Part shown: positions 4,421 through 27,803 of the stretch, piece by piece
How the letters are laid out: each line of letters opens with the position of its first letter
How positions within the stretch are numbered: position 1 is the stretch's first letter
Source: a phage
Strand: one strand, 5' to 3'
Sequence record: PZ445422.1
Length of the DNA stretch: 56,589 bases
Notes under the pieces: generated by a model
Seen by the model: the letters and a program-made list of their open reading frames with translations, nothing else
Databases searched by the model: none
What the model was told of the DNA's origin: nothing
Position numbers and translations under genes: made by a program

Positions 4421-5293
4421 TTATTTCTTAGCAGGACGTACAGGCTTCAGCGGATCTACGCCATTCTTTTCAGCTAAGCGTTTAGCTAAAGATTGATTAG
4501 TTTTCCAGAGATTCATCTGCTTAGAGATGTTCCAACCGTCGTGACTGTATGGGTCTTCACCGTGATGGCCGCCAGCGCCCGGACCAGATGCACCGCCACC
4601 AGCAGAACCTTCAACCCAGTGAGGACGTTTCGGGAGGATCTCGTTAAGCCAATCCGCCGGGGTTAGGTATGGAGTTACACCAGCCCCATCTTTCGTAACC
4701 ACATTACCGTTCTCGTCGACGGTCATTTGCAACTGTGCATAAGTCACCGCATCTTCGATAGCAGACGGACGCAGCTTAGCACCGGATGCAGCAGCAATAA
4801 CTGCGTCTTTAATCTTCGCTTTAGTTTCGCGAGTGCGGTAGCCTTCAATTTCCTGCTTAACGGAATCGCGTTCAGCTGCTACAGTTTGCAATTGACGCTC
4901 AAGCGGAGCAAGACGGGCTTTAACCATCTTTTCGATGTCTTCCGGAGTACCTTTACCGTTAGCGGCAGCTTCCAGTTGAGGGATACGATCAAGGTCCGCA
5001 AGGACTTCTTCAACCGGACGCCCAAGTGCGCTAATCTGTTGCTTCACCTGGCGATGGTCGTTACGTTCTTTAGCTAACGCACTTTCCAGACGACGAACGC
5101 TATCAGCAGGGGCTACACCTTTAACTTTTGCAAGAACGTATTTACCGCCCTGCTCTGCGTAAAGAGTTGCAAACTCTGCCGGGATCTCTTCCGCAGATGC
5201 ATATTCGTATTCCAGTTCCACATCACCTTCACCGCGAGCGCGTGGATTAATTAAAGCCATACCAACACTAATAGCTACAGAACTCTTTTTCAT
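4421..5293 (-). CDS. scaffolding protein candidate
   Basis: 290 aa, highly charged and helical (AKERNDHRQVKQQISALGR..., LERQLQTVAAERDSVKQEIEGYR), located between portal and capsid. Confidence 0.5.
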   Translation of the reverse strand: MKKSSVAISVGMALINPRARGEGDVELEYEYASAEEIPAEFATLYAEQGGKYVLAKVKGVAPADSVRRLESALAKERNDHRQVKQQISALGRPVEEVLADLDRIPQLEAAANGKGTPEDIEKMVKARLAPLERQLQTVAAERDSVKQEIEGYRTRETKAKIKDAVIAAASGAKLRPSAIEDAVTYAQLQMTVDENGNVVTKDGAGVTPYLTPADWLNEILPKRPHWVEGSAGGGASGPGAGGHHGEDPYSHDGWNISKQMNLWKTNQSLAKRLAEKNGVDPLKPVRPAKK

Positions 5294-15535: not shown

Positions 15536-15799
15536 TCAGATCTTACCTTCCTGCATAAGCCCTTCAACACGGGACATTTGATAGCGAGCAGGTTTCCAGG
15601 CTGCCAGAGCTTTCTCGGCACCTTTTAAAGTTTTATACGCTTTAATGCCCGGGACAATAGTGCTGCTTACCCCTGCGCCGTTGCCGTAATCAACCTCTTT
15701 AACAACACGGTATAAACCGTCGATTTGTTTTACTAACATACGTTTGAATGCAATAGCGCCAGTAGCTTCGTTTTTATAACGTTCCAGAATGCGAATCAT
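15536..15799 (-). CDS. hypothetical protein
   Basis: 87 aa; GGAGGTG RBS before ATG at 15799. Confidence 0.5.
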   Translation of the reverse strand: MIRILERYKNEATGAIAFKRMLVKQIDGLYRVVKEVDYGNGAGVSSTIVPGIKAYKTLKGAEKALAAWKPARYQMSRVEGLMQEGKI

Positions 15800-15825: not shown

Positions 15826-16029
15826 TTATTTAAATTCAAAGACGGCAATAGTTTTCATTGTATCCGAACTATAGATGTAGATATTTCCGCGGTCTTCTAC
15901 TACTGCACGCCATTCCTCTTCACCTTTAATAATGCAACGAGTTTTAAGATCCATTTTATACTCTGCACCTTCTACGAAACCGAAATTATTGTTTGCAACC
16001 ATTACACAGATAACGTTACGAATAGACAT
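15826..16029 (-). CDS. hypothetical protein
   Basis: 67 aa; AAAGGGG RBS before ATG; first gene of the minus-strand block at the divergent region. Confidence 0.45.
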   Translation of the reverse strand: MSIRNVICVMVANNNFGFVEGAEYKMDLKTRCIIKGEEEWRAVVEDRGNIYIYSSDTMKTIAVFEFK

Positions 16030-16176
16030 GATGTAGACCCCTTTAAGTTAATTTGTAGTACCGTTGCGGTATGTGTATATAGTAGGGTTAGATTGATCAT
16101 ATGTCTACACCTTTTTGCATCTTTTTATAAAAATATTTTGGACCAGCTTACAGGACGACCGGAGACGGTTGAGCGC

Positions 16177-16289
16177 CCCTGGTATTTCCGGCGCCCACAT
16201 AGTACCGATCCTACCTGGTATTTTCGATACAGGGAGCTGGCCCCACCTGGTAGATTCTACACATACGCGGAACCGGATGCCCCTGGTAG
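16177..16289. repeat. four phased copies of CC(C/A)CCTGGTA(T/G) in divergent intergenic region
   Basis: copies starting about 16177, 16212, 16243, 16280 (spacing 33-36 bp) in a GC-rich segment with no credible ORF. Confidence 0.5.
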
Positions 16290-16506
16290 ATCCGACGCCG
16301 CCTTATATGTATGCATGCACGCGTGTAGACCGGATCGTGTGATATTAGTTATGCCATTGGTGCTAATATGCAATGCAAGCATGATTTTCACTAGACGCAA
16401 AATAATTCTAAAATAGCACTTTTGGCCTATTCAATATCACGATGCATCGCTATTATGTACCCATAGCAACACGGTACTACTTCTTAACCACACTTGGAGG
16501 CGCGTT

Positions 16507-16674
16507 ATGTCCAGCTCATACTTCACTATTATGTACTTCGGTCGCAGCTATTGCATCGATAACAAATATCGCCACCTTACCCGCGCTCAGCTGGAGTGGG
16601 CCATCAGCTTATATAAGCAGGAAGAATTCTATTTCCTCGAAGCTGCACTGGATTATGTAAGCGAAAATAGTTGA
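16507..16674 (+). CDS. small hypothetical protein (55 aa)
   Basis: own translation MSSSYFTIMYFGRSYCIDNKYRHLTRAQLEWAISLYKQEEFYFLEAALDYVSENS; GGAGG RBS 7 nt upstream of ATG; first plus-strand gene. Confidence 0.4.
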   Translation: MSSSYFTIMYFGRSYCIDNKYRHLTRAQLEWAISLYKQEEFYFLEAALDYVSENS

Positions 16675-18237: not shown

Positions 18238-18360
18238 ACTACTTCCGGGCCAGCCCTCCTACTGGTCCGGTTAACCGCGCAATAAAGTCCTCCTCCAATA
18301 TCCCGCGATTAAGCGCATTATAGCTTGATATACCTTCCGATCACAATAGTTCAATAATTT

Positions 18361-18720
18361 ATTCCATTATTCCAATTATTCCGGAATCTGGAATAATACT
18401 GTATATCCATACACCATATTCCATTAACAATCCTGTCACGATTTGTATTCTTTCACTTTTTGTGAGTTTTGGGACTTTTTAACAATGACCCAAAAACATT
18501 CAAATAATACCAATAGGTACTATATACATTACTAATAAATCCTTATTTTATATATATTTATGGTATTACTTATTAACTTTTAGTTTCTATCCGTTTTTAG
18601 TCTGTTGACTGAAAGTTTTAGGTTTTTGCGCTCTGGAGTACCGATTCCATTATTCTATCAAGTAGGAATAATTTATTCCACTTCCATCATTTGGATTTCT
18701 ACCCATTCCATTCACTATTC
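18361..18720. repeat. AT-rich region with multiple direct and inverted TTCCATTATTCC / GGAATAAT elements
   Basis: copies near 18361, 18375-18397 (inverted pair ttattccggaat...ggaataat), 18415, 18645, 18663, 18705; no credible ORF. Confidence 0.5.
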
Positions 18721-18867
18721 ATTTAGTATCTATCTTATTGATTTATATACGTTTTTTACTAACAGTCGGGATTAGGGTATTAGGGTAAAAAATGCGTTTT
18801 ACCCCAAAACGCAAAAACTTACTGCACCAACTTATTGTTTTTATTAAAGTTTTTAGCAACAGTGGCA

Positions 18868-18965
18868 CCACAAAACTTCGCAAAACTTTGCAAAACTCAC
18901 AAAACTTTCCGTCACATTGTGCAAACTGTGGAGCACCAACTATTCCTACCCAAAACTTTCCATTA
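18868..18965. repeat. tandem 9-10 bp iterons CAAAACTT (4 contiguous copies plus one downstream)
   Basis: ccacaaaacttcgcaaaactttgcaaaactcacaaaactttcc then cccaaaactttcc; helical-phase spacing. Confidence 0.5.
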
Positions 18966-19066
18966 CATGTGGTTATATATTAACAATCCGCTCACATCAT
19001 AACTTCAGGTGGAATAATTGTGGCTGGCCTACTATGGATTGTGTATAGTGCTGTTAGGAGGTAGGT

Positions 19067-19282
19067 ATGGACTGTCAAAAAGAATTTGATCTTAAATACA
19101 TAACCACATCAGAAATTGAAAACCGCTTCGGTCTTAGTCGTCGCAAATTATGTTCGCTTCGCGGTAAGCTGCCGGGCGAAGTTAAGATTGCTAACGTGTA
19201 TGTTTATGTTCGTGCAGTTGCAGAACCTGTCTTAATGTTGCACGCTGGCCGGGTTGTGCCGGAGGTTGGTCGTGGGTCGTAA
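19067..19282 (+). CDS. hypothetical small protein (possible DNA-binding)
   Basis: 71 aa; strong AGGAGG RBS; first gene after the AT-rich region. Confidence 0.45.
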   Translation: MDCQKEFDLKYITTSEIENRFGLSRRKLCSLRGKLPGEVKIANVYVYVRAVAEPVLMLHAGRVVPEVGRGS

Positions 19283-19553
19283 GTGCAGGACTGTCCCGGG
19301 CAGTAATTTCAAAGGGCGCGGGCTCGCACGCCGGAAACCGCGAGTGCCTCGGGAAAATGTGAGCGGGCGTGAGGGCGTTACTTTCGATTATAAAACTGGT
19401 AAATGGCTTGCCCGATTAACATGGGTAGATGCAGGCGGAGAAACAAGGCGAACTTTCCTTGGACTGTATGACAGCATGAAAGACGCTTGCGAAGTATATG
19501 ACGCAAATAATTCAGCATACGAAGAATGGCGGAGGAAACAGATTTATGGCTAG
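19254..19553 (+). CDS. AP2-domain DNA-binding protein candidate
   Basis: VTFDYKTGKWLARLTWVDAGGETRRTFLGLYDSMKDACEVYD follows the AP2/ERF pattern (GKW.A.I....G..R..LG.F...E.A..AYD); start uncertain, overlaps previous gene. Confidence 0.4.
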   Translation: MCRRLVVGRKCRTVPGSNFKGRGLARRKPRVPRENVSGREGVTFDYKTGKWLARLTWVDAGGETRRTFLGLYDSMKDACEVYDANNSAYEEWRRKQIYG

Positions 19554-19815
19554 AAAAATACCATATATAGGTAAAGAGATGATTCGATTCCCTGCTCCAT
19601 GGCTGGGAGAAGGACAATTTGAGGATGTATGCGCTTATTTTGAAGAGGTGGAATTAAAAGGTGGGATTACACAATATCGCGCATTTATTAGAGTCATGGA
19701 TGAGTATCAGTATATTGGCACATATGCCACAATGGATACAGCTTTCGTCACTATCGATAAAGTCAAGGATGTAATTACATCTCTGTTAAAAGTGATTGTT
19801 AACGAAGGTAAATGA
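19546..19815 (+). CDS. hypothetical protein
   Basis: ATG at 19546 with GGAGGAAA RBS (internal start of track ORF 19498..19815). Confidence 0.45.
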   Translation: MARKIPYIGKEMIRFPAPWLGEGQFEDVCAYFEEVELKGGITQYRAFIRVMDEYQYIGTYATMDTAFVTIDKVKDVITSLLKVIVNEGK

Positions 19816-22151
19816 TGGAACTGTTTCCCGCTGAAATTAAAGCTTTCCCACAATGGGCGGTCGCCGATGCGGATAAAAAGCCGCTCGTATGGGATAACGA
19901 TATTGGACGTTTGATGGCGGCGGACGTTACCGATCCGGATATGCTTATGACGTTTGAAGCTGCCAAAGGTTGTGCTGCTCATTTCAATAAACCTTATATT
20001 GGCTTCGTGCTTACTGCGCAAGACCCGTTCACCTGTATCGACCTGGATGTGAAGAACGCAACCAATGAACCGGATCCCAAGAAGCACACAACGCCGGAAC
20101 AGTTGCGCCGCTTCGAACAGATCATGACTGCGTTCGATACTTACACCGAAGTAAGTCGCTCAGGCTTGGGCGTCCACCTGTGGTTAAGAGGGAACATCGG
20201 TAAAGGTCGCCGACGTGATGGTGTCGAGGTTTATAGTCAGGAGCGTTTTATTATCTGCACTGGTAATCCTGTCTACAACAAACCAGTTGCAGAACGTGAT
20301 CATTACCTTACTATGCTTGTGAATGAAATTGATCTTCAGCGCAAGACATATGAAATTGAACTGGTAGAAAAAGATCCGGTAGAAGATGATGCAACTATTC
20401 ATCAGCGCGCACTTGAAGCAGACAACGGCGATAAGTATGCACGCCTATTCAATGGCGAATGGGTTGAAATGGGATTCCCTTCCCAGTCTGAAGCAGACCT
20501 TGCCCTTATTTCCATGTATGCATTTTACACAGAAAGTAATGAGCAATGTCGCCGTCTGTTCCGTTACAGTGCACTGGGCAAACGTGAGAAGGCTAATAAG
20601 AACAATGTTCATATTGACCGTTGTTTGCGTATGTGTCGCGGTCGCATGGAGCGTGAACGCATTGCCCAGGAAAACGTAGCGGCGCTGGCGCGGGATTACG
20701 CTGCTCGTATGCAAGCTGCACACAGTGCAATGCAGCAGGTAACGGAAATGCCTGTAACCACAGTCAGCCCGTCCGGTGAAATAGTAGTTGCAGAAAGCAC
20801 GTCCATTGATGCAACAGCTATTGAATGGCCGCCGGGACTTGCTGGTGAGCTTGCGAAGTATATCTACAAAGCATCGCAGCGTCCGGTGAAAGAAATTGCA
20901 ATCACTGCATCGTTAGCATTCTTGTCAGGTGTATGCGGTAAGGTATGGAATACTATCACCAACACAGGGCTGAACGGTTACTTTGTGCTCATTGCCCGAT
21001 CAGGTGTGGGTAAAGAAATGCTTCACGCTGGGCCCAGCTATATTTGTAAGCAGGTAGGCGAGCAATTACCGCAAGTGCATGAATTTGTAGACATGACTAA
21101 CTATGCTTCCGGTCCTGCCTTGCGTAAAAGTTTTGCGGATCATACTTCGTTTGTGAATATTAACGGCGAGTTCGGTAAAACCATTAAAGGTATGGCAACA
21201 GCTCAACCTGGCACTGCAAACTACACCCTGAAGCAAACTATTACAGATGTGTATCAAAAATCTGGTGCGATGGATGTTGTTGGCGGTATCGGATATTCTG
21301 ATAAGGCTAATAATACCAAAACAATGGAAGGGGTAGCGTTCAGCATTTTGGGCGAAACAACACCGGACACATTCTTTGAAGCGTTAACACGTGAAATGAT
21401 GGAAGACGGTTTCTTGTCCCGTTTCCACATTGTGCAATATGAAGGGGATCGTGTTCCTGCAAACGAGAATCCTGAAATTACAATGCCGCAGCAATTAAAG
21501 GACATGGTGTGCCATCTTGTTAACCACACGTTAGTGACAATGGCGAAGTTCCAGACCGTTACCGTCCAGTTAAGCTCTGAAGCGGAAAGGATTGAACGGG
21601 AGTTTAACTTGCTGTGTGATGAACACATTAACGCAACTAAAGACGAAGCTATCCGTCAGCCGTGGAACCGTGCTCACCTTAAAGCTCTGCGTCTTGCTTC
21701 CCTGTTAGCAGTGGGGGAAAACTGGATCAATCCTGTCGTTCAGCCCAATCACATGCAATGGGCGGTAGATTTTGTTACGCATGGGCAGGACATCATGATC
21801 AACGCATGGGAAAAAGGTACTATTGGCGGTGATGATGAAACGCGTGTGAAGGCTATCTGTCAGGTCTGCAAAGATTATCTTGGCGGTAAAATTGCATGCG
21901 ATCGTAAGGAGCTGCGAGTTGACGGTATTATTCCGAAGGCAACTATCACACGCAGAACCTACGGGTTAGCAGCATTCAAGAATCACAGGATGGGAGCAGG
22001 TACTGCAACAGACCTCACTATCAAACAACTTGTAGACATGGGCGCGCTTGTTCCGGTTACGCGTGAAGATGCGTTGAAGCGTAATTTCAGGGGATTGGGA
22101 TGGTATATAGACGAGTCAATTGAGAGTGTTTTCAAGGACTTAAGCAAATAA
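19812..22151 (+). CDS. DNA primase-polymerase (Prim-Pol) with C-terminal NTPase-like region
   Basis: 779 aa; N-terminal block GFVLT..DPFTCIDLDVKN and VSRSGLGVHLWL match Prim-Pol catalytic motifs; C-terminal region with P-loop-like LIARSGVGKE. Confidence 0.65.
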   Translation: MMELFPAEIKAFPQWAVADADKKPLVWDNDIGRLMAADVTDPDMLMTFEAAKGCAAHFNKPYIGFVLTAQDPFTCIDLDVKNATNEPDPKKHTTPEQLRRFEQIMTAFDTYTEVSRSGLGVHLWLRGNIGKGRRRDGVEVYSQERFIICTGNPVYNKPVAERDHYLTMLVNEIDLQRKTYEIELVEKDPVEDDATIHQRALEADNGDKYARLFNGEWVEMGFPSQSEADLALISMYAFYTESNEQCRRLFRYSALGKREKANKNNVHIDRCLRMCRGRMERERIAQENVAALARDYAARMQAAHSAMQQVTEMPVTTVSPSGEIVVAESTSIDATAIEWPPGLAGELAKYIYKASQRPVKEIAITASLAFLSGVCGKVWNTITNTGLNGYFVLIARSGVGKEMLHAGPSYICKQVGEQLPQVHEFVDMTNYASGPALRKSFADHTSFVNINGEFGKTIKGMATAQPGTANYTLKQTITDVYQKSGAMDVVGGIGYSDKANNTKTMEGVAFSILGETTPDTFFEALTREMMEDGFLSRFHIVQYEGDRVPANENPEITMPQQLKDMVCHLVNHTLVTMAKFQTVTVQLSSEAERIEREFNLLCDEHINATKDEAIRQPWNRAHLKALRLASLLAVGENWINPVVQPNHMQWAVDFVTHGQDIMINAWEKGTIGGDDETRVKAICQVCKDYLGGKIACDRKELRVDGIIPKATITRRTYGLAAFKNHRMGAGTATDLTIKQLVDMGALVPVTREDALKRNFRGLGWYIDESIESVFKDLSK

Positions 22152-22178
22152 ATAAAGGGCCTTTCGGCCCTTTATTGT
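22152..22178. terminator. bidirectional intrinsic terminator
   Basis: aaagggcc-tttc-ggcccttt hairpin flanked by A and T tracts between convergent genes. Confidence 0.6.
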
Positions 22179-22402
22179 TAGTTGAAATAGTAATCGTCGA
22201 CGTCGTACCTTGCCATAATTTCGGATGCTTCCGCCGCACTTTCCGCTTCTTCATAAGCTTTCTCAGCGTCATCATAAGTACCGTAATACATCCAACCTTC
22301 ACCCATTGGACGGATGTATGCTTCAAATTTACCAGTACGCGGGCGACGTACAACTTTATAATCCGCGCCCATTGTGCTATATACTTTATTCAGCATGACC
22401 AT
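22178..22402 (-). CDS. AP2-domain DNA-binding protein, antisense island in the plus-strand module
   Basis: YKVVRRPRTGKFEAYIRPMGEGWMYYGTYDDAEKAYEEAESAA fits the AP2 pattern; GGAGG RBS 8 nt before ATG at 22402. Confidence 0.5.
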   Translation of the reverse strand: MVMLNKVYSTMGADYKVVRRPRTGKFEAYIRPMGEGWMYYGTYDDAEKAYEEAESAAEASEIMARYDVDDYYFN

Positions 22403-26899: not shown

Positions 26900-27803
26900 A
26901 CCACATTTAGCAACTGACGCGGTTGAAGAAAAGATTAAGTTTCCATGCTGTATACTGCCTAAAATCGACGGTGTACGCGGTTTAAATCCGGACGGGCAGA
27001 TAGTAGGGCGAAGCTTAAAGCTGTTTAAAAACCGCCATACAAGCGAAATTTTCAGCGGTCCTCAATACATGGGCTATGACGGGGAGCTCGCGGCAGGTGT
27101 AGAAACAGATCCAGACCTGTGCCGTAAAACAACCAGTGCGGTAAACACAATTGAAGGCGAACCGTTCCTGAAATGGCACATCTTTGATCTGTGCGCGGAA
27201 AGTGTTGCAGAGCTGGGCTATGAAGCACGCTACAACATGATGAAAGACTTTATAACCACACAGCACGCTAAAGGCGAATTGCTCGACCTGCAAGTTGTGC
27301 CGATGTATGTGGTTAAGTCTTTGCAAGAGCTGCTTTACTGGGAAAACATTTGGCTTGATATGGGTTATGAAGGTATTATTATCCGTGATCCAGGCAAGCC
27401 CTATAAGCATGGGCGCGGTACAGTTCGCGAAGGTGGATATCTTCGTATTAAACGCTTTATTCAGGAAGACGCTATTGTCCTCGATATTATTGAGGGTGAA
27501 ACTAATCTTAATGAAGCCACTGTTAACGAGCTGGGAAGGACTACACGATCTTCACATCAGGAGAATAAAGTTCCTAACGGTATGATCGGGACGCTTGTTT
27601 GTAAAGACGTTAAGACGGGCAATACCATCAACGTTAGTCCTGGTAAACTAACGCAAGAGGATAAGATTTATTATTGGAATAACCCTGACAAGATTAAAGG
27701 TCGGACTATTTCATATAAACACTTCCCTCATGGTGTTAAAGATAAACCGCGTTTTGCTAACTTTATGCATTTCCGCGATGAAACTGATCAGGCTTTAGAT
27801 TAA
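26889..27803 (+). CDS. ATP-dependent DNA ligase
   Basis: nucleotidyltransferase motif I ILPKIDGVRG (KxDG) and GYEGIIIRDP block; ATG at 26889 with AGAGGTG RBS. Confidence 0.65.
   Translation: MAFKPHLATDAVEEKIKFPCCILPKIDGVRGLNPDGQIVGRSLKLFKNRHTSEIFSGPQYMGYDGELAAGVETDPDLCRKTTSAVNTIEGEPFLKWHIFDLCAESVAELGYEARYNMMKDFITTQHAKGELLDLQVVPMYVVKSLQELLYWENIWLDMGYEGIIIRDPGKPYKHGRGTVREGGYLRIKRFIQEDAIVLDIIEGETNLNEATVNELGRTTRSSHQENKVPNGMIGTLVCKDVKTGNTINVSPGKLTQEDKIYYWNNPDKIKGRTISYKHFPHGVKDKPRFANFMHFRDETDQALD

Follow-up and report, generated by a model that had tools for sequence, protein, structure and literature searches.

The locus and its repeats

The window analysed here (record PZ445422.1) represents in full the E. 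coli phage GottfriedDienst (Escherichia phage; BASEL Bas21, MZ501071.1; Queuovirinae, Seuratvirus), whose 56,589-bp genome it holds in rotated and reverse-complemented form. Our subject is a cluster of four co-oriented repeats built on the heptamer CCTGGTA, which lies inside the 478-bp gap between a leftward and a rightward gene block. Comparisons across related phages indicate that these repeats are almost certainly a selected cis-element. With a probability that we put at about 0.45, they constitute an accessory array of co-oriented, asymmetric ~17-bp sites in double-stranded DNA for one sequence-specific protein, an array that would modulate the divergent early control region. The genes bounding the gap to its left and right, respectively, are:

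15826-16029, minus strand: bas21_0075, first gene of the leftward block (67 aa; GenBank annotation)
16507-16674, plus strand: bas21_0074, first gene of the rightward block (55 aa; PHROG 18706; GenBank annotation)

All four copies of the heptamer are on the plus strand (16178-16184, 16214-16220, 16246-16252 and 16282-16288) and, as a preliminary description of this DNA had already recognized, between the divergently transcribed blocks. The longer consensus given there, CC(C/A)CCTGGTA, is found exactly in the third copy only: the copies read GCCCCTGGTA, CTACCTGGTA, CCACCTGGTA and GCCCCTGGTA, with the 7-mer preceded by C or A, and the 7-mer itself is the exact shared core. Their spacing, previously put at 33-36 bp, measures 36, 32 and 36 bp. 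The number of copies is not in itself remarkable, as ~4.5 occurrences of CCTGGTA are expected genome-wide. What is unusual is the clustering, since the probability of four of five random positions falling within 104 bp is ~5 × 10−8. The motif is thus not equally frequent in coding regions: the whole 56.6 kb holds one copy besides the array, at 27639. Elsewhere, the hexamer CCTGGT and its complement ACCAGG are under-represented, at 6 observed against 11.3 expected and 4 against 14.3, respectively; with the array left out, 2 and 4 copies stand against the 11 and 14 expected under a maximal-order Markov model. GGTACC is missing from the genome altogether.

The conserved unit is an asymmetric bipartite site

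A core-anchored alignment of 32 distinct units from 19 phages and contigs revealed several strongly conserved positions beyond the core used to select them: T at +9 (30/32 units), C at +11 (all 32) and C at +16 (30/32), along with G at +12 and +13 and C at +14. The resulting consensus, CCTGGTAnnTyCGGCrC, is an asymmetric bipartite site of ~17 bp. Hence, the conserved unit extends on the 3' side well past the 10-11 bp that had been proposed for it. A weight matrix built from the 32 aligned units was then used to scan both strands of the genome. It recovered four sites scoring 27-29 bits, with no other position on either strand reaching 8 bits:

16175-16195, plus strand: Site 1, GCCCCTGGTATTTCCGGCGCC; 29.0 bits; core at 16178
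16211-16231, plus strand: Site 2, CTACCTGGTATTTTCGATACA; 27.7 bits; includes the 9-bp palindrome TACCTGGTA
16243-16263, plus strand: Site 3, CCACCTGGTAGATTCTACACA; 27.7 bits; core at 16246
16279-16299, plus strand: Site 4, GCCCCTGGTAGATCCGACGCC; 26.8 bits; short inverted arms CGGAT / ATCCG around the core

The whole units are 71-86% identical to each other, with the core and box 2 of the bipartite site (nearly) invariant.

The site is conserved in the sister genus Nonagvirus

The case for selection is carried by the sister genus Nonagvirus, whose intergenic DNA is missed by BLAST and can be aligned to that of GottfriedDienst only in patches; the proteins of GottfriedDienst and the Nonagvirus phage FritzHoffmann are 30-75% identical. 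We read this region in FritzHoffmann, ESCO3 and 9g, in three IMG/VR contigs and in seven further metagenome contigs. Nonagvirus phages carry three copies of the site, TGCTACCTGGTATTTTCGGCGCG, TGTTACCTGGTATTTTCGACACG and CGCTACCTGGTATTTCCGGCACA, spaced 26-27 bp apart. These copies occupy the homologous counterpart of the divergent early region, point the same way with respect to the replication operon as those of GottfriedDienst and lie ~75-150 bp upstream of a match to the promoter pattern TTGCAT-N17-TA(C/T)TAT. Three copies are present in nearly all of the sequences read, and two only in a single metagenome contig (L152). Further, the whole array region is covered, at 94-100% identity, by each of the 16 records that the phage collection has for Nonagvirus. 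In FritzHoffmann, the weight matrix finds three sites at 26-33 bits and nothing else reaching 8 bits on either strand. Thus, in genome-wide scans of both phages, the repeats are not random and are found nowhere but in the divergent intergenic region, which supports the preliminary description on this point.

The correspondence between the genera is close at the level of the site: a 16-nt run, CTACCTGGTATTTTCG, is identical in Site 2 of GottfriedDienst and unit 1 of FritzHoffmann, and the Site 1 stretch CCTGGTATTTCCGGC recurs in Nonagvirus unit 3 and in unit 1 of the Seuratvirus phage CAjan. Overall, 15-17 of the 17 site positions are kept across genera and units, while linkers, spacing and flanks diverge; the spacings are 36/32/36 bp in GottfriedDienst, 35/36-37/27 bp in CAjan-type phages and 26/27 bp in Nonagvirus. 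As judged from these alignments, this is what selection acting on the site, and not on a duplicated block, would produce. Since a 17-nt site has been retained amid changing linkers, spacing and flanks, the site itself would therefore be functional and read as sequence.

Wider searches recovered little beyond these two genera. Scans of IMG/VR and metagenomes with the extended motif returned Queuovirinae-like contigs of ~60 kb plus one unrelated 4.5-kb contig (L151), and the conserved right flank used as an anchor in IMG/VR matched slur01 only. In bacterial genomes, the extended motif was encountered only in unrelated non-enteric taxa, at a chance-level count. A first IMG/VR scan with three copies of the short motif CCTGGTM was uninformative: its 120+ matches were nearly all collagen-like coding repeats (CCT GGT encoding Pro-Gly) with spacings in multiples of three. 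No CCTGGT array is present in Providencia phage PSTCR7, which is more distantly related.

Two other repeats came to light in these relatives. PSTCR7, a distant siphovirus, features an unrelated iteron-like array in which a 25-nt unit, TGTAACAATAACA..., is present four times at intervals of 30-31 bp (4458-4574 of its sequence), in a 640-bp non-coding gap downstream of its bas21_0073 homologue. In Nonagvirus, a direct repeat TACTATAACGT occurs twice, 62 bp apart, on either side of GTTACGTCATGTGAC and to the left of the CCTGGTA array (551-623 of the FritzHoffmann region sequence, 360-430 of that of 9g). It may be another regulatory site.

The array resides in a hypervariable cassette in Seuratvirus

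Within Seuratvirus, the array is carried by a variable segment:

16140-16310: GC-rich hypervariable cassette carrying the array (alignment and composition)
16141-16147, minus strand: inverted partial core GGACCAG at the left cassette edge (read directly in the sequences)

The G+C content of the cassette, taken with part of the conserved right flank, is 58%, as against 32-37% for the flanks. When 11 Seuratvirus relatives were aligned, the flanks (16040-16139 and 16311-16506) proved almost invariant, and the block enclosed by them varied in length between ~150 and 0 bp. We determined the copy number in 35 Seuratvirus records from BLAST coverage combined with directly read sequences. At least three cores (3-4) were found in 10 records, one core in 4 and none in 21. 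The cassettes fall into the following types:

Type I: GottfriedDienst (4 cores) and SLUR25 (3 cores)
Type II: CAjan, KS_A8, CSP1, Dru_SM1 and Greed (3-4 cores; left junction different)
Type III: SeppeHuegi, KS_W4, ECP2304 and SA126VB (1 core; the SA126VB copy degenerate, CCTGTA)
Empty, reading GGCAGCTTTATATG: yong3, phiG7, KurtStettler and SA80RD (0 cores)

In Seurat- and WildeMaa-type phages, the whole left part is missing. A core-like CCTGTG is additionally present in Dru_SM1, KS_A8 and CSP1.

The cassette also displays signs of local rearrangement. The partial core GGACCAG at its left edge has grown into a full hairpin, ACTGGTCCGTGGACCAGT, in SeppeHuegi-type phages, and the SLUR25 unit homologous to Site 4 (its unit 3) has perfect 8-bp inverted arms. 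In a Seuratvirus metagenome contig (L157, ~267-309), the 9-bp core between those arms is flipped, with TACCAGGGG replacing CCCCTGGTA between ACCGGATC and GATCCGGT. A second flip distinguishes CAjan (CATCCGGTG) from Dru_SM1 ((C)GCCGGATG), where a 9-bp CCGGAT-containing segment in the linker before unit 3 is inverted between arms of the CAGGGGC/GCCCCTG type. These small inversions suggest hairpin-mediated template switching in the cassette DNA, and we attribute the variable copy number to this instability, that is, to the short inverted repeats and flip-flop inversions.

CAGCTT, with which the type I/III cassette opens, is still present in the empty site. Because of this remnant, and because the outgroup genus possesses the array, the comparison suggests that the array was ancestral to Nonagvirus and Seuratvirus and was subsequently deleted between short CTTA-like homologies. 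Its frequent deletion among close relatives implies that, in Seuratvirus, its role is accessory and dispensable, not essential. The preliminary description had invoked an early/late switch; given that 21 of the 35 records are without any array, an indispensable switch of this kind is unlikely.

Predicted promoters and the arrangement of the sites

A consensus scan of the conserved flanks predicts one promoter for each block:

16079-16107, minus strand: candidate sigma-70 promoter of the leftward early block, TAGACA-17-TACTAT (consensus scan, 9/12 matches; prediction)
16387-16414, plus strand: candidate sigma-70 promoter of the rightward early/replication block, TTCACT-16-TAAAAT (consensus scan; prediction)

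Both are directed away from the array. The leftward candidate is in the left flank that is invariant across the 11 phages and the rightward one is in the conserved right flank, with its TTCTAAAATA segment also kept in Nonagvirus.

The regular spacing of the phased repeats had been taken to suggest cooperative binding of a regulator. Regular phasing for binding on one face of the helix was not borne out: neighbouring sites are ~2.5 or 3.4-3.5 turns apart and thus on roughly opposite faces. The intervals correspond to 3.4 and 3.05 turns in GottfriedDienst, 3.3-3.5 for the longer ones of CAjan-type phages and 2.5-2.6 for those of 26 and 27 bp, and only the 32-bp interval of GottfriedDienst is near-integral. 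As many of the intervals share ancestry, the tendency towards half turns should be taken as descriptive and not as statistical.

A proposed accessory array of protein-binding sites

The other part of that earlier proposal, binding by a regulator, fares better: with the site kept across two genera, sites for a sequence-specific factor are the simplest reading of the repeats. We infer protein binding, an effect on transcription and the promoter positions from the sequence, and the mechanism that we envisage is as follows. The array would sit in the spacer between two divergent early promoters of Queuovirinae phages, and several molecules of one protein, encoded by the phage or by the host, would load head-to-tail on it on alternating helix faces. 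The resulting nucleoprotein block, ~70-250 bp upstream of both predicted promoters, might then act as an activator, repressor or insulator and so adjust early transcription on one side or on both.

Several points weigh against this proposal. First, at least 68 bp separate the sites from the predicted -35/-10 hexamers, so that the two do not overlap; moreover, the promoters are themselves consensus predictions, and the GenBank record of 9g predicts promoters directed into the array. Second, the 21 array-free Seuratvirus records manage without it. Third, the Nonagvirus sites are at least as variable as their flanks, which leaves no signal of selection within that genus, and an exchange of the cassette between the two genera by horizontal transfer could look like long-term conservation. 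Fourth, no binding protein was found: searches of the neighbouring small proteins against Pfam, PHROG and PDB sequences returned no clear DNA-binding regulator. No gene tracks the array either, as the flanking genes on both sides are found with and without it, and apart from the array this region is near-identical in CAjan (4 units) and KurtStettler (0 units).

Among known systems, the operators between divergent phage promoters, such as the phi29 p4 sites between A2c/A2b and A3 or lambda OR, resemble the array in having multiple sites for one factor between early blocks. However, they overlap or abut promoter hexamers, are usually dyad-symmetric and have a cognate regulator gene nearby. In contrast, the sites described here are asymmetric and removed from the predicted hexamers, and no regulator gene was found among the neighbouring small proteins. 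The operator of the P1 C1 repressor is likewise an asymmetric ~17-bp site (17 bp, monomer-type), but it is scattered over the P1 genome at many promoters, whereas the site in GottfriedDienst is limited to one array.

The Queuovirinae are widely used model coliphages (BASEL Bas19-25, 9g, CAjan), known for their 7-deazaguanine DNA modification. To our knowledge, their gene regulation and replication control are essentially unmapped. In the literature searched, we found no mention of the motif, the array being unannotated and undescribed there, and no transcriptome or origin mapping for any member of the Queuovirinae. The array would thus be the first concrete candidate for a cis-element, of an iteron- or operator-like kind, in their early control region and an entry point into its regulation. 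Its natural loss in many isolates provides isogenic-like comparisons, for example of CAjan or GottfriedDienst with KurtStettler. A binder of host origin would expose a host dependency or vulnerability common to both genera.

The search for a binding protein

We compared ~27 kb of GottfriedDienst and CAjan, which have the array, with KurtStettler and phiG7, which do not. In this set, bas21_0076 alone tracks the array, and it co-occurs with arrays of 3-4 cores more widely. As a binder it was rejected, since it is extensively exchanged and is absent from Dru_SM1 (4 units) and from Nonagvirus; given these absences and its presence in Wifcevirus myoviruses, its association with the array reflects physical linkage. 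The first rightward gene was set aside because it belongs to two unrelated families, each seen with and without the array. A small helix-turn-helix-like protein encoded at 19067 was also rejected, as it comes in three alleles with a different putative recognition helix in each and has no Nonagvirus homologue.

The search yielded only one kind of lead, a weak similarity to the AP2 domain in small stand-alone proteins encoded at 19272-19553 (plus strand), 22178-22402 (minus strand) and possibly 19546-19815 (plus strand), with Pfam E-values of 2 × 10−4 and 5 × 10−3 and PDB matches to ERF proteins at E ~0.2. The 74-aa member of this group, whose gene immediately follows that of the primase and lies on the other strand, is conserved at 93-96% in other Seuratviruses. 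GC-rich boxes of the GCCGCC or CCGAC kind, similar to box 2, are the targets of AP2 domains. These proteins may be DNA-binding regulators or remnants of homing endonucleases. The near-identity of the site despite strongly diverged phage proteins is equally compatible with a host-encoded binder. Among the recognition sequences of known host factors, compared by eye (DnaA, IHF, Fis, FadR/GntR-type, NanR, Chi, sigma-54, extended -10), none fits the invariant positions.

Unstable or mobile DNA as a possible alternative

The alternative that survives best, though we consider it unlikely, is that the cassette is functionally neutral: an unstable, GC-rich, palindrome-rich, minisatellite-like insert or a small selfish cassette that hitch-hikes in these genomes and has been shared between the genera by recombination. 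The range from 0 to 4 cores among close relatives, the small inversions between inverted arms, the three left junctions and a G+C content well above that of the flanks would all be expected of such an element. In addition, the array-free phages are viable isolates, and the Nonagvirus sites are no better conserved than their flanks. However, such a neutral origin does not readily explain the retention of 15-17 of 17 positions across genera and units despite diverging linkers, spacing and flanks, nor the matching of the whole array region by all 16 Nonagvirus records. Against a mobile element, moreover, no copies are dispersed elsewhere in these genomes and none were found in other phages, in plasmids or in E. 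coli, and the cassette's first bases in the empty site GGCAGCTTTATATG suggest deletion from an array-bearing ancestor rather than insertion. Tandem Repeats Finder makes no tandem-repeat call, and the divergence along the unit is not uniform, contrary to a neutral tandem repeat.

Several more specific forms of this idea were rejected. The array is like repetitive extragenic palindromic (REP) sequences, bacterial interspersed mosaic elements or miniature inverted-repeat transposable elements (MITEs) in being GC-rich, intergenic, equipped with short inverted repeats and variable in copy number. It differs from them in having one locus per genome, no E. coli match and neither terminal inverted repeats nor a clear target duplication. 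The cassette matches a single locus only, in 12 Seuratvirus records, which excludes a dispersed REP- or MITE-like repeat, and a REP likeness seen by eye (CCGGATGC...CGCCTTAT) did not hold up. A host-derived sequence is excluded by 0 matches in 5,426 E. coli genomes, and plasmid iterons by matches in plasmids at chance level only. A coding repeat is ruled out by the different reading frames of the units (PGI, PGI, LVD, LVD) and by the lack of conservation of the open reading frame at 16115-16342. Finally, the unit (~17 bp, period 26-37 bp) does not have the dimensions of a mini-array of clustered regularly interspaced short palindromic repeats (repeats of 28-37 bp, period ~60 bp).

The array and the origin of replication

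Quite doubtful is a role of the repeats as the iterons of a replication origin, either as an assembly site for an initiator (e.g., the NrS-1-like primase-helicase) beside AT-rich DNA or as an auxiliary or secondary origin. In favor of such a role, there is one cluster per genome, with 3-4 co-oriented sites of ~17-21 bp. It is located upstream of the replication operon encoding the AEP primase-polymerase/DUF3987 helicase and directly adjoins AT-rich DNA (16110-16139), as it does in Nonagvirus. This AT-rich stretch, with a surrounding 100-bp window of 32% G+C, would fit the UP element of the leftward promoter equally well. It is also known from T4 and T7 that a phage may do without an individual origin. 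Known iteron arrays (lambda ori ITN1-4; the P4 ori/crr type I iterons with the alpha primase-helicase; R6K and RK2) are similar on several of these counts: they comprise 3-4 direct, co-oriented sites of ~17-20 bp in one non-coding cluster per genome, beside an AT-rich stretch and upstream of a primase-helicase operon.

Nonetheless, the sequence evidence indicates that the array is probably not the main origin, on account of the GC-skew minima, the mosaicism of the replication module and the identity of primases between phages with and without the array. First, the cumulative GC-skew minima are at 19006 in GottfriedDienst and 51694 in FritzHoffmann, whereas the arrays are at 16.2 kb and 54.9 kb; in both genera, the minimum marks the edge of a separate non-coding gap of ~0.8-1.0 kb beside the primase module. 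Second, the primase-helicase of CAjan (4 units) is 99-100% identical to those of KurtStettler and phiG7 (0 units), while the helicase/C-terminal half of the GottfriedDienst protein is divergent (42-70% identity) and yet the site is the same. Third, the mosaic replication module of GottfriedDienst takes in the right half of the 18.2-19.1 kb gap and not the array. Accordingly, the array differs from known iterons in having its GC-skew switch and module mosaicism at another locus, in being missing from most Seuratvirus genomes (21/35) and in its spacing of 2.5-3.5 turns, as opposed to the roughly two turns, on the same face, that are typical of iterons. It is also without a covarying cognate initiator: among the primase-helicase and other linked genes compared, none covaries with or is linked to the array.

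A likelier origin emerged from the same comparisons. The 830-bp gap at 18238-19066 is AT-rich and without annotated genes, ~750 bp upstream of the primase gene, and contains three copies of TTATTCC with inverted GGAATAAT copies (TTATTCC/GGAATAA), two of ATTAGGGT and five to six of CAAAACTT. The edge (51694) of the analogous 1-kb gap of FritzHoffmann is its skew minimum. By these features, the gap would be the likeliest origin of replication. The NrS-1-like primase-polymerase/DUF3987 helicase (19812-22151) is itself a mosaic, with residues 1-300 being 99-100% identical to the proteins of CAjan, KurtStettler and phiG7. A block specific to GottfriedDienst, made up of the right half of the gap (18626-19066), the small genes that follow it (19067-19815) and the primase's C-terminal half, looks like an exchanged replication-initiation module. 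For phage engineering, it is useful to have the array told apart from this likelier origin region at 18.2-19.1 kb.

RNA, DNA entry and promoter activity

It is improbable that the motif acts in RNA, where it would be transcribed within a small RNA or a long 5' leader and be bound by an RNA-binding protein or a small RNA. Possible rightward promoters just upstream of the array would allow its transcription: in 9g, ATGACT-16-TATAGT from our scan and a BPROM prediction in the GenBank record; in GottfriedDienst, a weaker TCTACA-16-TATAAA ending at 16131, noted by eye. The single orientation common to all copies would also be accounted for. Against this, an Rfam search of the array region found no match at the gathering threshold or even at the permissive E ≤ 5, and no tRNA or tRNA fragment was detected. 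Folding is no better than that of shuffled sequence (z-scores −0.8, −1.2, +0.4 and −0.8 for both strands in both genera), pairings flanking the core vary by unit without covariation, the core is inverted in one natural variant and no terminator follows the array. Display of the core in a hairpin loop can be dismissed, as arms exist in some units only, at offsets that differ by unit, and in none of the Nonagvirus units. Hence, the structured element that had been offered as an alternative to a regulator finds no backing, with no Rfam match, z-scores of −1.2 to +0.4 and no consistent hairpin around the core.

One might instead conceive of the array as a polar nucleoprotein barrier rather than a classical operator, or as a readout of host cytosine methylation, although we hold either to be highly improbable. 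The array is ~7.2 kb (13%) from the presumed cos end beside the lysis genes, an end that, if lambda is taken as the model, would be the last packaged and the first ejected. If so, a host or virion protein on the array could pause DNA entry, or block polymerases one way, until the leftward host-takeover genes are expressed, loosely like the first-step-transfer stop region of phage T5. Methylation readout comes into consideration because every unit contains a Dcm site (CCTGG).

The least probable possibility is that the units are tandem weak promoters of the extended -10 (TGgTATTTT) or sigma-54-like (GG-N10-GC) kind: several units do read TGGTATTTT or TGGTAGATT, a TGn with a 4/6 match to the -10 hexamer, and units 1 and 4 contain GG-N10-GC, but the invariant bases are CCTGGT and not the -10 hexamer, the critical -11 A is replaced by C in 8/32 units and the sigma-54 -12 G by A in 18/32, no motif-like sequence precedes any other gene block, and promoters spaced at 26-36 bp would occlude each other.

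Flanking genes and other features of the locus

The minus-strand block comprises ~20 small early genes followed by lysis and terminase genes, and the plus-strand block heads towards the replication and 7-deazaguanine modification genes. Searches of Pfam and PHROG returned no family match for the product of bas21_0075, and bas21_0074 has a Nonagvirus homologue with 52% identity. The neighbouring bas21_0076 (15536-15799, minus strand) codes for an 87-aa early protein (PHROG 27467) with ~86% identity to Wifcevirus myovirus proteins and with relatives in Klebsiella and Serratia phages. This distribution points to a small early gene recently exchanged between phage families.

Just to the right of the array, at 16312-16325, there are two overlapping perfect 8-bp palindromes, TGCATGCA and CACGCGTG, which may be a second operator. 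At the same position, other Seuratviruses carry a different GC-rich palindromic segment (GCGCCCGCGCG).

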